Assembly: GCA_005191425.1 (NCBI GenBank)
Contig: SUPR01000019.1
Location: forward strand, 8,789-40,788
Source: Candidatus Helarchaeota ASGARD archaeon Hel_GB_B
GTDB taxonomy: Archaea > Asgardarchaeota > Lokiarchaeia > Helarchaeales > HEL-GB-B
Reading direction: 5' to 3'
Length of the DNA: 32,000 bases
Below the pieces are notes generated by a model, which saw only the letters and a program-made list of their open reading frames with translations, ran no database searches and had not been told where the DNA came from. Position numbers and translations under genes: made by a program. Below, piece after piece: positions 22,431 through 27,494 of the stretch. Each line of letters starts with the position of its first letter. The stretch's first letter is position 1.

Positions 22431-23183
22431 TCATTTATTTACGGAGCGGTCGTAAGCAAAAATTCCTAAAAAAATGATTGAAATTGTAAAAATTGTGATC
22501 CCGATCATATCTTGAATTTGTATTTGCCATTGAAAAAGAAGCGACCTTAATATATTAACTCCGAAACTCATTGGATTGAATTGTAATATATAAACTACCA
22601 GATTTGGGAAATAATTTGAGATTATATCAATAGGGTAGAATATTGTAGAACCAAACATCAACCACAAATACACCAAACTTCGAGCTAATGTAAAATTCCG
22701 GCTACCCCTAATCGATGTAGCTAAAATAATTGCCAATGAAGTCATGGAAAGCGAAAAAACTATAATAAAAAATAATATAATCAGAATTTCTAAAATATTC
22801 GGTAATCTAATTAAAATAAATGATGTAATAAGTAGTGGAAATGAATAAACAAGCCCTTGCAAGGCTCCAGCTAATGCCCTGCCTAATATAAAGTCCAATC
22901 TTTTTAAAGGTAAAGAAAGTAAATAAAAATCAAATTTGTTTTCTTTTTCAATATTTATTTTCCGCCCTAAAATGAATGACGCTGAAAATGCAGAAACTAA
23001 AGTTATTCCAGGACTGAAAAATTTCAAATAATTCAGGCCAACAATTAAATTTCCGAGTGTATTTGCCATAATCAACAAATCAATGATATATGATACCATT
23101 AATATTGCGATCCAATAAGTAAACCTGAAAAAGTTCTTAATGTCCATTTTTAAAATTATAACAAATGTTAGTCGGTTTTTCAA
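22431..23183 (-). CDS. ABC-2 type transporter permease
   Basis: Multi-TM protein with FFSPG, LGRALAG, STIFYP, NPMSFGVNILR. Start is TTG 23183 or ATG 23147. Confidence 0.88.
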   Translation of the reverse strand: MKNRLTFVIILKMDIKNFFRFTYWIAILMVSYIIDLLIMANTLGNLIVGLNYLKFFSPGITLVSAFSASFILGRKINIEKENKFDFYLLSLPLKRLDFILGRALAGALQGLVYSFPLLITSFILIRLPNILEILIILFFIIVFSLSMTSLAIILATSIRGSRNFTLARSLVYLWLMFGSTIFYPIDIISNYFPNLVVYILQFNPMSFGVNILRSLLFQWQIQIQDMIGITIFTISIIFLGIFAYDRSVNK

Positions 23184-23959
23184 CTGAATTTTCCACCCTC
23201 CAGTTTTGAAATATATAATTTTAAACTAATAGTCATTAATCCTACTGAGAAAATAATTAAATATAAAACAGGATATGTTATATTTGTAATTTGTTGGACC
23301 CCGGTACTATACCTCAGCAAATCACTGGCATGAGTCAATGGATTTAACCGAGAAGCTAACTTCATCCAGAACATCATTGCAGATTCTGGATAATAAATCG
23401 TCGACAGTCTTATCATAAAAATATCTATTATTCCAATCAAAAAGTCTAATACCATCACAGATTTAATTAATGAACCTAATGTGATCGCAAAACCTGATAG
23501 TCCAAGTCCGAATATGACCAAAATCCCAATTATTAATAATAAGTTTATTATATTTGGAACCCCCACAATTAACAATATTATTATTAAAAATGGTGCGATA
23601 TATATTAAATTTCTAAAAGTTGAACCGAGCATCCTACCAATTACATATTCTGATTTCTTAATTGGCAAACTAAGATAATAATCAACCATACCAGATTGCC
23701 GCTCTCCTGATACACTCCAAGCTGTAAACATTGAAAATGACCATAATGTAAGGACTGACATCCCTATCGCATAATATTGCATATAATTTAAACTGGGAAT
23801 TAAATAATTCAAAATAAATGCATAAATAAATGTTTGGACTATAAATGACAGTGAGTTGGTAAATAAATATAGTTTATTTGCTAATAAATGCTTCCATTCA
23901 CGTTCTATAATTCTTAATATATTATATAATGTATTATTTCTTAGATTTAATATGTTCAA
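23180..23959 (-). CDS. ABC-2 type transporter permease
   Basis: IIEREWK, ERQSG...LPI, IGRMLG, STIYYP, NPLTHASDLLR. Confidence 0.88.
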   Translation of the reverse strand: MNILNLRNNTLYNILRIIEREWKHLLANKLYLFTNSLSFIVQTFIYAFILNYLIPSLNYMQYYAIGMSVLTLWSFSMFTAWSVSGERQSGMVDYYLSLPIKKSEYVIGRMLGSTFRNLIYIAPFLIIILLIVGVPNIINLLLIIGILVIFGLGLSGFAITLGSLIKSVMVLDFLIGIIDIFMIRLSTIYYPESAMMFWMKLASRLNPLTHASDLLRYSTGVQQITNITYPVLYLIIFSVGLMTISLKLYISKLEGGKFS

Positions 23960-24930
23960 CCTCCATTAGTTAAAAGAGACTTTGTATAATAGAAAAAAAC
24001 ATCGTCTAAACTTGGGTTTGTAGTTTCGAGGTTCTTAATAATTATTTTATTGCTCTGAAAAAATTGCAAAATTTCTGGAGTTACCTTTTTAATGTTTCTT
24101 ACTAAAATTTTCATCTCAATTTCATTTGTATTTTCAGAATTTTCTTTAAAATAAATTTCTGAAATATATGGTAAATTTAATAACTGCGATTTTACTTCTT
24201 TAAGTTCTAATTTGCAAGTATTTTTCTCAAAATTAATCATAATAACGTTTCCCGCCGGAATTGAATTTTTCAAATTTTCAGGGCTATCAATTTTTATAAT
24301 TTTACCTTCGTTCATAATTGCGACACGGTCTGACAGGACGTCTGCTTCGTGCATTAAATTTGTAGCTAAAATAATTGTGCTCCCATTTTCGTCATTGAGT
24401 TCTTTTATGTAATCCCAAATTATCTTTTTCATTACGGGGTCTAGAAACGCGGTCGGTTCGTCAAAAATTGCAATTTTTGGCTTGGCGACGAGTACTTTAC
24501 ACACTTCTATTTTTTTTCTGGTCCCTCCAGATAATTTCCAGTTTTTTATTTTTCTATAATCTTCCAATTTTAGTGATTTAATAAGCTCATTTATCCTTTT
24601 ATTTAATTCTACCTTCGGAATTTTATATACTTTCCCATGAAACCGGAGTGTTTCAACTAAATTTAATTGCCAGTCTAATTTTGGGTCTTGAAAACTTACT
24701 GAGATTAATTTACGGACATTATATGGCTGGTCTATGATACTAAATCCTCCTACTTTAGCACTCCCAGAATCTGGCTTTATAATTGTCGCCAATAAATTTA
24801 TCAGAGTCGACTTCCCTGCACCATTTGGACCAAGTAACCCGAATATCTCTCCATCATTAATATTCAAGCTTACATTATCAACTGCAATAATTTTTTTAAA
24901 CTTTTTTGTTAACCCATTTATTTCAATCAT
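23956..24930 (-). CDS. ABC transporter ATP-binding protein (DrrA-like)
   Basis: GPNGAGKST, LSGG, IAIFDEPT, and C-terminal PSLDDVFFYYT. Confidence 0.92.
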   Translation of the reverse strand: MIEINGLTKKFKKIIAVDNVSLNINDGEIFGLLGPNGAGKSTLINLLATIIKPDSGSAKVGGFSIIDQPYNVRKLISVSFQDPKLDWQLNLVETLRFHGKVYKIPKVELNKRINELIKSLKLEDYRKIKNWKLSGGTRKKIEVCKVLVAKPKIAIFDEPTAFLDPVMKKIIWDYIKELNDENGSTIILATNLMHEADVLSDRVAIMNEGKIIKIDSPENLKNSIPAGNVIMINFEKNTCKLELKEVKSQLLNLPYISEIYFKENSENTNEIEMKILVRNIKKVTPEILQFFQSNKIIIKNLETTNPSLDDVFFYYTKSLLTNGG

Positions 24931-25334
24931 TTAACTCTATTCCTAATTTCCTCATCAAGAATATTCACATATTTTTTCAGCATATTACAAATCTCTTTTG
25001 GGATTTCTATTTCATTGTTGTCCTTATAGCAACTACAATCTCTGTCAATTTCACATTCATTATTTATATTTAAAATTATTGGATAAAATTTACAACCTAA
25101 AGGGCGGAATTCATAAATTTTACATATATTTTTATTTCGATTAAAAAAGTAGCAATAACCATTAATATTTCTTAACTTTTGGTATCCGTCTTCGACTACA
25201 ATAAATTCATCTTTTACATACCCTAAACTCTCTAATTTATTAATCTCTGCATTTGTTATCTCCATTTCAGTCTCTTTACAACAATTTCCACATTTTATAC
25301 ATTTTAATTTTAAATCTTCTGGGTTATTAATCAT
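24927..25334 (-). CDS. YkgJ/UPF0153 family cysteine-cluster protein
   Basis: CIKCGNCC, CYFF, CKIYEFRPLGCKFYP. ATGA overlap with the ABC ATPase gene. Confidence 0.88.
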   Translation of the reverse strand: MINNPEDLKLKCIKCGNCCKETEMEITNAEINKLESLGYVKDEFIVVEDGYQKLRNINGYCYFFNRNKNICKIYEFRPLGCKFYPIILNINNECEIDRDCSCYKDNNEIEIPKEICNMLKKYVNILDEEIRNRVK

Positions 25335-25529: not shown

Positions 25530-25844
25530 ATGCTAAGAAATATTTTAGTCATTCAAGGGAAGGAAATTATTTACAATAGGAAATATGGAGAAACTTATCC
25601 ATGGGAAGCGATTGCACCTTTATATCTATCTTTAACGTATTTTCTTGATGAAATTGTTGATGATGTTGAAATAGATTTCATGAATACTGTCCATTATAAA
25701 ATTGCTTATTCAACTAACTCTTCTGTTCCTGGTAGACCATTGCTTTTTATTTTTGTAACTGATTTGGGCGATCCAAACGATATTATTAAAGAGCAGATCA
25801 CACTTTTTAATAGTGAGGTCTCAAAAATGCTGGGAGGTGTATAA
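25530..25844 (+). CDS. Stand-alone longin-like domain protein
   Basis: MLRNILVIQGKEIIYNRKYG...LLFIFVTDLGDPNDIIKEQI shows the beta-beta-alpha-beta-beta-beta-alpha pattern I recall from longin-like N-termini of Asgard small GTPases. Start may be 25521, 25527 or 25530. Confidence 0.6.
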   Translation: MLRNILVIQGKEIIYNRKYGETYPWEAIAPLYLSLTYFLDEIVDDVEIDFMNTVHYKIAYSTNSSVPGRPLLFIFVTDLGDPNDIIKEQITLFNSEVSKMLGGV

Positions 25845-25845
25845 A

Positions 25846-27291
25846 ATGTCTACAATTCCCGAATTACCTGTTAGTGTAATCCAAGGCGTTGGAGAACAAA
25901 TCACAAAAAAGCTGGGGAAGGTCGGTGTAAAAACTGTTTCAGATCTCGCAGCAATTGAAATCCTTGAAATATCAAAAAAACTTAAAATCCCACAACATAT
26001 CTTAATCGAATTCCGTAAAAAAGCCCGACAATTACGCGAACTCATTTTCGACTTTGAAATAATAAAAAAACTTGAAGATAAAAAGTTGATGATTAATGAT
26101 TTAATTGAACTTTCTATTGAAAAAGTCCAAAAAATTACCGGTCTAAATGAAGAAGATGCTTTAAAACTTTTGGATAAAGTTTCAATCTTAACAATTGTTT
26201 TAGATGCTGAACGTTGTAAAAATCTACCTGTCTCTTCTTTACAAACTAAACCATATATTCCAGAAACCGGTGAACTTGAAAAATTAGTTGATATTAAAAA
26301 AGTAGATACTCTTGCAGATAGTATCCTTAATGAAATTCCGCCTAAAATTTCATTAATAGGATTCTCTGGAACTGGAAAAACTACCATCGGAAATTTAATT
26401 CAAAATGAAGAATTTCCAAAGACTCATCTGCCAACTATGACATTAGATATTGATAATATAGTCATTGGTGGACTACAAAATTGTATTCTATTTGATTGCG
26501 CAGGTCAAGAACAATTTTCTTTTCTCTGGAATCGATTTATTAAAAATTCTGATGCTATTATTTTAGTCACAGACTCACAAGAAGATAATGTAAAAAAATC
26601 AATATTTTTTATTGAACAAATAAGAAAAGAAACCCCTAAAACACCTCTTGCTATTATTGCAAATAAACAAGACCTTCCAAATGCAATGAAGCCGGACAAA
26701 ATTAAAGAGATACTCGGCGGATATAGGACCGAAGGACTTGTAGCTATTGAACGAGAAAATAGAGAAAAAATCTTGACATTAATTGCTGACCTATTAAAAT
26801 TAAGTCCTGAGCTGAAAAATATGATCCCTATCCAGGTAAAAACTGACACTATTATCCGAGAAGCTGAAATTGTCACCCAATACCCAGAATCTGTTGTCAA
26901 TGAAATCAAATCAATTGAAAAAGAAATGGAACAAATTGAAAAAGAAATCAATGACTTAAAACTAGAATTAAAAAAAGAACTCTCCGAAGAAGAAGCAAGA
27001 AACTTACGAATTAAATTAATTGTTTCCAAGGCTAAATTACGAAACAAACAAAATGAAATTAATGCCATTAAACTCAGAAGTGATAGTATTACATGTTTAA
27101 GTTTCGATATACACCAAGGAATGAGAAATGTAAGCTATATAATTCAATGCAAATGTGGTAATATCTATAAAGTCCTTTATGAAGTTGATCGTGGTACTGA
27201 ATCGGTGGTACTTACTTGCCCCGTTTGCGGAAGTGAATATGTCGCCGATGAATCTACATGGAATGAATTAAAATTAGATAGTTTTAAATAA
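25846..27291 (+). CDS. Multidomain Arf-like small GTPase: HhH repeats, GTPase, coiled coil, Zn ribbon
   Basis: ATG 25846 has a GGAGGTG RBS. G1 GFSGTGKTT, G2 PTMT, G3 DCAGQE, G4 ANKQDLPNAM. N-terminal IQGVGEQITKKL...VKTVSDLA HhH, heptad-rich segment, CKCG...CPVCG. Confidence 0.88.
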   Translation: MSTIPELPVSVIQGVGEQITKKLGKVGVKTVSDLAAIEILEISKKLKIPQHILIEFRKKARQLRELIFDFEIIKKLEDKKLMINDLIELSIEKVQKITGLNEEDALKLLDKVSILTIVLDAERCKNLPVSSLQTKPYIPETGELEKLVDIKKVDTLADSILNEIPPKISLIGFSGTGKTTIGNLIQNEEFPKTHLPTMTLDIDNIVIGGLQNCILFDCAGQEQFSFLWNRFIKNSDAIILVTDSQEDNVKKSIFFIEQIRKETPKTPLAIIANKQDLPNAMKPDKIKEILGGYRTEGLVAIERENREKILTLIADLLKLSPELKNMIPIQVKTDTIIREAEIVTQYPESVVNEIKSIEKEMEQIEKEINDLKLELKKELSEEEARNLRIKLIVSKAKLRNKQNEINAIKLRSDSITCLSFDIHQGMRNVSYIIQCKCGNIYKVLYEVDRGTESVVLTCPVCGSEYVADESTWNELKLDSFK

Positions 27292-27368: not shown

Positions 27369-27494
27369 TTATGGGAAAGGCCAAGGAGCCCAAGGATCCG
27401 CAGTAACTGGTTCTTCATTATTTAATCCGAACGCAATTATGTATTTGAATAGGCCTAATAACTTCGTTTCCATTAATTGTTCTAATTCGGTCAT
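27369..27494 (-). CDS. Unannotated 41-aa small protein MTELEQLMETKLLGLFKYIIAFGLNNEEPVTADPWAPWPFP
   Basis: ATG 27494 to TAA 27369, visibly GC-richer than its flanks. TATA-like TTTAAATA ends 22 nt before the ATG, and a T-tract follows the stop. Confidence 0.6.
   Translation of the reverse strand: MTELEQLMETKLLGLFKYIIAFGLNNEEPVTADPWAPWPFP

Follow-up and report, generated by a model that had tools for sequence, protein, structure and literature searches.

A candidate split form of the Asgard longin-Arf-like GTPase family, with a helix-hairpin-helix module, in Helarchaeales

We analyzed a 32,000-nucleotide stretch of the genome of Candidatus Helarchaeota archaeon Hel_GB_B (GenBank assembly GCA_005191425.1, contig SUPR01000019.1, positions 8,789 to 40,788 of the forward strand), hereafter called the window, and describe a pair of adjacent genes located on its forward strand. 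The first gene encodes a small protein with a predicted longin fold. The second gene encodes a larger protein, in which a helix-hairpin-helix (HhH) module, an Arf-like small GTPase domain (G domain), a predicted coiled coil and a domain with a C4 zinc ribbon follow one another (Table 1). The pair was compared with orthologous loci and with a set of 152 collected proteins related to either the G domain or the longin, which was scanned with domain hidden Markov models (HMMs) built for this purpose. Structure models were obtained with AlphaFold2 (AF2), and their confidence is given as the predicted local distance difference test (pLDDT) and the predicted template modeling score (pTM).

Table 1. 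Features of the longin and GTPase genes; positions are counted from the first letter of the window, residues refer to the GTPase protein.
Feature	Position	Strand	Details
Longin-fold protein gene	25530..25844	+	104 aa from ATG 25530; stop TAA 25842-25844
Shine-Dalgarno-like GGAGGTG	25833..25839	+	Within the final longin codons (L-G-G-V), 6 nt ahead of the GTPase ATG
N-terminal HhH module, residues 1-135	25846..26250	+	Pfam and PDB profile matches
Low-confidence linker with a short helix (residues 150-161) ahead of the G domain	26251..26337	+	AF2 secondary structure
Arf-like small GTPase domain, residues 165-335	26338..26850	+	Pfam Arf; G1 GFSGTGKT, switch-I PT, G3 DCAGQ, G4 NKQD
Helical coiled-coil region, residues 345-412	26878..27081	+	AF2 helices 348-375 and 381-409, pLDDT 75-91
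C-terminal beta-rich domain with C4 zinc ribbon, residues 413-481, and stop codon	27082..27291	+	Invariant Cys, five predicted strands

The open reading frame (ORF) of the GTPase protein extends from ATG 25846 to 27291 (481 aa) and begins one base past the longin stop, in a different frame. Alternative starts of the longin gene are present at ATG 25527 and GTG 25521; ATG 25530 is the likely start because the residues M-L-R open all orthologs. Contigs of three public runs from three studies bridge the junction without inserted or deleted letters, thus the split is not an assembly error. In public data this DNA occurs in metagenomes from hydrothermal vents and marine sediments, and no RNA run is listed for this stretch.

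The identical two-gene layout was found in all six orthologous loci that were fetched, as well as in further genomes of the same order. At the six orthologous junctions, stop and start are separated by 0, 1 or 2 nt, the GTPase gene starts with ATG, GTG or TTG, and a GGAGG core, extended to GGAGGTG in three cases, lies 5-8 nt upstream of the start. This core is encoded by the conserved L-G-G tail of the longin. The longin and GTPase genes with their Shine-Dalgarno-bearing junction are kept in all six loci down to 47% protein identity, and the flanking genes vary. A divergent CxxCxxCC protein and an ABC-2 transporter are common only to the closest genomes, and the flanks are different at the locus with 47% identity, so the conserved unit is the longin-GTPase pair itself. 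An earlier reading of this DNA, made from the sequence only, had proposed two coupled genes with the stop at 25844, the start at 25846 in another frame and a ribosome-binding site inside the longin gene. The ORF geometry and the GGAGGTG sequence confirm this description, and translational coupling of the two genes is supported as a prediction from these features.

The G domain of the large protein is matched by the Pfam Arf model at residues 167-292 (6.4e-18, 65.3 bits against a gathering cutoff of 22.3). Its closest solved sequences are two Asgard entries, 8oun and 8oum (the latter titled GerdArfR1), and the eukaryotic Arf and Arl proteins (Arf1, Arl1, Arl8), with E-values of 8e-13 to 1e-11; the Asgard entries score no better than the eukaryotic Arfs. 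The Foldseek search with the G-domain model placed Arl1, Arf1 and Arf6 on top (template modeling score by target of 0.72-0.82). The full-length GTPase model is of moderate quality (pLDDT 67.5, pTM 0.42, six-row alignment) and only its secondary structure and G-domain fold were considered; domain packing was not read from it. The motifs GFSGTGKT, P196-T197, D217-G220-Q221 and N273-K274-Q275-D276 are invariant in the six orthologs. Since all G motifs are intact and invariant, the large protein is predicted to carry a competent GTPase and not a pseudo-GTPase. These results agree with the Arf-like assignment in the sequence-only reading, which had also singled out the G4 region ANKQDLPNAM as identical to eukaryotic Arf1; this region matches the solved fungal Arf 5uf8 letter for letter.

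The N-terminal amphipathic helix with which Arf proteins bind membranes, and which an interswitch toggle releases in them, is not present in the large protein, which starts with the 135-aa HhH module and has only the short helix at residues 150-161 ahead of strand 1 of the G domain; pLDDT is below 50 over residues 134-164. Replacement of the amphipathic helix by HhH, as proposed from the sequence, thus holds for the nature of the N-terminus, yet a short helix still precedes strand 1.

The small protein was modeled on a 31-row alignment of its orthologs and the N-terminal domains of long relatives (pLDDT 84.8, pTM 0.77). The model has the topology b-b-a-b-b-b-a, with strands at residues 3-10, 13-19, 50-53, 57-64 and 72-79 and helices at residues 26-42 and 84-101, and the N-terminal helix typical of Roadblock is absent from it. 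An invariant Arg marks the start of the first strand (M-L-R, position 3 or 4). The best structural match by VIA-align is the VAMP7 longin (Z 11.4, root-mean-square deviation 2.2, 93 residues aligned); Sec22 (Z 10.7) and AP-3 sigma (Z 10.6) are also among the matches. Roadblock proteins are tied with the longins (MglB, Z 10.8-11.0; Gse1, Z 11.1), and the Foldseek matches include AP sigma, LAMTOR, zeta-COP and SRX with E-values of about 6e-4 to 1e-3. Because the Roadblock and longin scores are tied, the structure search fixes the superfamily, and it is the topology that fixes the longin subtype. The longin-like nature of the small ORF, noted already from its sequence, is supported by predicted fold, strand and helix order and the VAMP7 match, not by sequence models.

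Relatives of the small protein are mostly parts of larger polypeptides. A search of its profile against 1.8 billion representatives yielded far longer proteins that carry it in their first ~100 residues (E 1e-4 to 1e-28), and all ten long relatives that were tested possess a Pfam Arf domain at about residues 120-260, behind the longin. The relatives of the G domain found by sequence are nearly all 300-800 aa long. Within the collected set, a window-type longin is fused N-terminally to the G domain in 124 of the 152 proteins. The window genome contains four further paralogs, all of them fused, and the window pair is its sole split copy. The split form is rare, being found at about 8 loci in one order, and the HhH module is present in only six full-length orthologs and two fragments from the set. 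A quick maximum-likelihood tree of the G domain places the six split proteins and the fused protein P0131 in one clade (Shimodaira-Hasegawa-like approximate likelihood ratio test (SH-aLRT) value of 99), with fused proteins on both sides. The large share of fusions and the nested tree position together argue that the window pair is a derived, split member of the longin-Arf-like GTPase family, in which the HhH module occupies the site of the old linker.

In the P0131 protein (439 aa; L003:322-1641, forward strand), longin, GTPase, coiled coil and zinc ribbon form a single chain, and the HhH module is missing. Its sister within the split clade is P0015 (SH-aLRT 99), a split ortholog with which it shares 72% identity from the G domain through the coiled coil and ribbon; the longin gene next to P0015 encodes a protein with 61% identity to the N-terminal domain of P0131. 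The P0015 segment EIDVIADQI.. aligns with the segment preceding the G domain of P0131. P0015 and the window protein have homologous HhH modules (42% identity). The simplest history that would account for this distribution is one gain of the module together with the split and, later, a loss by which the genes became one again in P0131.

The tail of the large protein consists of two long predicted helices and a C-terminal domain with four invariant cysteines, in line with the long coiled coil and C4 ribbon that had been described from the sequence. The cysteines C435 and C437 (CxC) and C458 and C461 (CxxC) are invariant in the six orthologs, are also present in P0131, and are flanked by predicted strands. 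The C-terminal domain contains in addition an invariant D-x-H-Q-x-M-R-N-V stretch; it is acidic (isoelectric point (pI) 4.6) and restricted to the six orthologs and P0131 among the collected proteins. No named family, including the zinc-ribbon ones, matches this domain above threshold. When the tail profile was run against PDB, all matches were compositional ones to GCN4-type coiled coils (E 0.004-0.1); scores from an Atlas feature search with the C-terminal domain did not exceed 0.83 and serve only as leads.

The N-terminal module of the GTPase protein was assigned to HhH by profile matches. The Pfam models found in a search with residues 1-165 are IMS_HHH_1 (9.4e-5), HHH_5 (1.2e-4) and RAD51D_N (3.2e-4). 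The last two match all six orthologs, with best E-values of 7.1e-9 for HHH_5 and 7.3e-6 for RAD51D_N, and the window protein alone is below the Pfam cutoff for HhH (22.9 vs 27 bits). Against PDB, the module profile matches the DNA polymerase IV thumb (0.0028) and the RAD51D N-terminal domain (0.028), and there is a weak match to the NusA C-terminal repeat over residues 75-106 (E 0.064). From the sequence, the module had been described as a tandem HhH region of ~150 aa. The HhH assignment is borne out by the six orthologs, the length is reduced to ~135 aa, and support for a true second repeat at residues 70-135 is weak (residues 1-66 vs 67-135 by hhalign, P 0.008, probability 4.8%). In HhH profiles the hairpin reads h-x-G-h-G; it is G-V-G at residues 14-16 of the window module and in several other copies, and G-I-D in P0015 and most paralogous copies; we take the G-I-D type to be that of the protein-binding NusA acidic repeats. 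The hairpin is followed by an invariant basic helix (E55, R57, K59, A60, R61, R64), and the module as a whole is only mildly basic (pI 8.95).

Relatives of the module surfaced only in a six-frame search of 400 genomes of the phylum. Strong matches (E 1e-27 or lower) were found in five of them, namely the window genome itself, a congener, two genomes from its order and a member of another family. The 12 aligned copies share 13 invariant positions, including the hairpin Gly and the signature P-x-H-K-x-M-E-F-x-K-K-A. A word-based search for shorter proteins that could be a stand-alone donor of the module gave only one truncated ortholog, P0152.

In two genomes, the module precedes TackOD1 and Mrr_cat nuclease-like domains. 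The respective proteins (L018:460-1977, reverse strand; L026:2759-4285, forward strand) are ~506-509 aa long and combine the HhH module with TackOD1 (E about 1e-37) and a weak Mrr_cat match. A 598-aa open frame (L025:3-1796, reverse strand) contains three tandem HhH modules, each with an E-value of 1e-30 to 1e-35 against the module HMM. Three paralogs (L024:1984-3210, L027:1112-2446 and L027:4030-5355, all on the forward strand) continue after the HhH module with a conserved C-terminal region of ~250 aa, one of which gives a faint winged-helix-type match (Penicillinase_R, 8e-4, below its cutoff). The module was also found ahead of a hydrophobic tail that is a predicted membrane anchor. Its occurrence in several architectures indicates a discrete, mobile domain of this lineage. 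Another GTPase ortholog, P0016 (319 aa, on a 1075-nt contig), extends past the HhH module as far as the P-loop (GFSG), goes on as DDE transposase sequence (precomputed Pfam DDE_Tnp_IS240 and rve_3), and represents either a copy disrupted by an insertion sequence or a chimeric contig.

It can be speculated that the HhH module binds nucleic acid directly, a possibility we rate somewhat short of even. A fuller version of this idea, in which the module would bind DNA or RNA, the GTPase cycle would be tied to nucleic-acid sensing or tethering and the longin would serve as a guanine nucleotide exchange factor (GEF) or platform, is more tentative still. It is favored by the similarity to HHH_5, RAD51D_N and the polymerase IV/iota thumb in the six orthologs, by the canonical G-V-G hairpin with the invariant basic helix behind it in the window module, by the pI of the module, and by its fusion to TackOD1 plus Mrr_cat and to the faint winged-helix-type parts, which are DNA-associated contexts. 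Against direct binding speak the G-I-D hairpin of P0015 and most paralogous copies, the mild basicity of the module and the acidity of the zinc-ribbon domain, as well as P0131, which manages without the module. The genomic context points in the same direction: around the pair, the compared orthologous loci share no conserved genes for defence or DNA metabolism, and no PADLOC family matched the longin, the GTPase or the other HhH-module proteins.

The same G-I-D hairpins would fit a protein-protein adaptor, comparable to NusA AR1/AR2 or the RAD51D N-terminal domains, which would recruit the switch to a protein partner. The weak NusA matches are consistent with such a role, and so is the promiscuity of the module, which occurs in three tandem copies, ahead of the predicted membrane anchor and ahead of unrelated C-terminal domains. 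However, a nuclease-like domain is among its fusion partners, and its best sequence similarity is to the DNA-binding HhH of Y-family polymerases; we regard the adaptor role as rather unlikely.

For the pair as a whole, we consider it probable that the two genes form a translationally coupled version of the Asgard longin-Arf-like GTPase switch, with the longin regulating in trans. The small gene encodes the longin-fold domain that in nearly all relatives is the N-terminal domain of the GTPase polypeptide. In this lineage, the ~135-aa HhH module lies between the longin and GTPase parts, and the reading frame is broken. Ribosomes that finish the longin gene would restart on the GTPase gene, providing roughly matched amounts of the two proteins. 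The free longin would then bind the G domain in trans, as it would necessarily do in cis in the fused relatives, and may serve as a dedicated regulator or platform that gates the nucleotide state, acting like a GTPase-activating protein (GAP), a GEF or an effector. Finally, the HhH module and the coiled-coil/zinc-ribbon tail may be parts for targeting or assembly, specific to this lineage, by which the switch would be brought to DNA or to a partner associated with DNA.

It is quite likely that the longin binds the G domain, given the fusions, which provide a strong prior, the conserved coupling and, with less weight, a complex prediction. The complex of the longin and the G domain (residues 150-335) with GTP and Mg was predicted with a score of 0.51, compared with 0.01 for the best control, which gives weak support. 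The runs share at least 92% of contacts, and the pLDDT of the partners is at least 87. In the calibration, the mark was reached by 58 of the 80 solved complexes and by 2 of the 110 mismatched pairs; at 0.60 or under, 7 of the 80 solved complexes passed, plus both passing mismatches. The use of our own alignments and of a riding ligand differs from the calibration.

Several observations count against this interpretation of the pair. The complex prediction is weak and may draw on solved complexes of longin or roadblock proteins with GTPases. No Pfam or NCBIfam family, including the longin-type models (Longin, Clat_adaptor_s, Sybindin and others), matches the small protein at E-values up to 1. 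The b1-b2 loop of the longin reads K/Q-G-K-E and there is no G-P in the 31 aligned sequences, so they lack the GP motif known from GAP longins of the FLCN/SMCR8/NPRL2 type (PMC12290439). The G-domain tree comes from a quick search and is rooted at midpoint, and P0131 is known from a single 2.9-kb contig with about 2.9x coverage. In view of the missing GP motif and longin Pfam match, the type of regulation is left as GAP-, GEF- or effector-like.

It is very improbable that the longin gene is a leftover of gene disruption that no longer works with the GTPase, as the rarity and derived nature of the split form might suggest. The small ORF has remained intact, with 67-78% identity between close orthologs, and its longin is 53% identical to that of the window at the locus where the GTPase is 47% identical. 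Moreover, 48 positions are invariant across eight close longin orthologs, the longin stop always adjoins the GTPase start, and the small protein is modeled with high confidence. Programmed frameshifting or stop-codon readthrough, which would join the two ORFs into one polypeptide and recreate the fused protein, is hardly credible: in three orthologous loci as well as in the window, shifting by +1 at the stop could join the frames, and fused relatives exist, but the variable gap leaves no single recoding event conserved among the orthologs, and each locus has its own start codon at the distance from the GGAGG core that is the signature of reinitiation. A conserved recoding event was therefore rejected, and the variable gap fits termination-reinitiation.

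The pairing of a longin with an Arf-like GTPase in Asgard archaea is not new. Five cases of longins fused to Lokiarchaeum Arf-like GTPases were reported in 2016 (Klinger et al. 2016, as cited in PMC4917890), and 'longin-GTPase' ('L-G') architectures based on AF2 were described for MK-D1 (Tran et al. 2024, PMC10933270). Longin N-termini were also noted among Asgard Arfs (AArfs) by Zhu et al. 2025 (PMC11914678), who took the variety of N-termini as a hint that part of the Asgard Arf-like GTPases work at sites other than membranes. In the division of Asgard Arfs into ArfL and ArfR (Klinger 2016; Vargova 2024/2025), the longin fusion suggests for the window G domain the 'Arf-like' group, which is described as longin-fused (PMC4917890). 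The sequence-only reading had treated the architecture as unrecognized, which does not hold for the longin and Arf-like GTPase themselves: these sources describe them as single-chain fusions, the form seen in most of the collected proteins. New here are the two-gene split, the HhH module and the coiled-coil/zinc-ribbon tail; a combination of Asgard small GTPases with helix-hairpin-helix domains is not described in the literature searched.

The pair shares with the Asgard longin-Arf-like fusions the longin domain and the G-domain family, and its G domain nests among theirs. In contrast to the fusions, its longin is a separate coupled gene, HhH lies ahead of the G domain, and the tail is found only in this clade. 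According to Tran et al. 2024 (PMC10933270), MK-D1 as a rule does not have its GTPase genes in operons with longin genes, and the window pair would be an exception to this pattern.

Among eukaryotic systems, SRX of SR-alpha with the Arf-related SR-beta (PDB 1nrj) likewise combines a single longin-type domain with an Arf-family G domain (Foldseek E 1.2e-3), and the binding of SRX to SR-beta is the closest single-domain analogy for the longin-GTPase pair. The window pair has no signal recognition particle receptor context, and the likeness is structural, by fold match alone. The longin GAP complexes (FLCN-FNIP, GATOR1 NPRL2-NPRL3, C9orf72-SMCR8) and GEFs (TRAPP, Mon1-Ccz1, DENN) also use the longin fold to act on Rag, Arf or Rab, and several of them are in the structural match list at Z 8-10. 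However, they employ longin heterodimers in large complexes, and the window longin is without the GP motif (compare PMC12290439). In bacteria, the Ras-like GTPase MglA and its Roadblock GAP MglB similarly represent a small GTPase and a small regulator of the longin/roadblock superfamily encoded by adjacent genes. MglB has the Roadblock topology with the N-terminal helix, whereas the window protein has the longin order without that helix, and the window G domain is Arf-like and not MglA-like.

The genes around the pair are conserved to different extents. On the reverse strand, a divergent upstream block (22431-25334) comprises the genes for the CxxCxxCC (PF03692-type) protein, for an ABC ATPase and for two ABC-2 permeases. 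Synteny of this block with the pair is seen in the close relatives L002 and L010-L012 and not in L001; the short contig of L013 has room for only the CxxCxxCC gene of this block. Downstream, a 41-aa ORF on the reverse strand (27369-27494) is convergent on the GTPase gene and ends with the tail D-P-W-x-P-W-P-F-P. This ORF is kept with 60-69% identity directly 3' of the GTPase gene in L002, L011, L012 and L013, and no copy of it was found in L010 or L001.

Small GTPases are numerous in Asgard archaea, which also encode dozens of longin and roadblock proteins. To our knowledge, it is almost never known which of these regulators acts on which GTPase. Operons rarely help to match them (Tran et al., PMC10933270). 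For the family described here, evolution would have made the assignment explicit: the longin and the G domain are fused in about a hundred relatives, split and coupled in the clade of the window pair, and apparently re-fused once. The HhH module suggests that some Asgard Arf-like GTPases may act away from membranes. It is improbable that the pair is an Arf-like switch on DNA or chromatin instead of membranes, with HhH as the tether, the detachable longin as the gate and the coiled-coil/zinc-ribbon tail as the assembly part. If true, this would be a prokaryotic small-GTPase system for a DNA transaction, and the series of split, fused and re-fused forms would show a longin regulator becoming a free subunit. 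The split form provides two naturally separate, small and soluble-looking proteins, and would thus allow a direct test of an Asgard longin as a GAP, a GEF or an effector.

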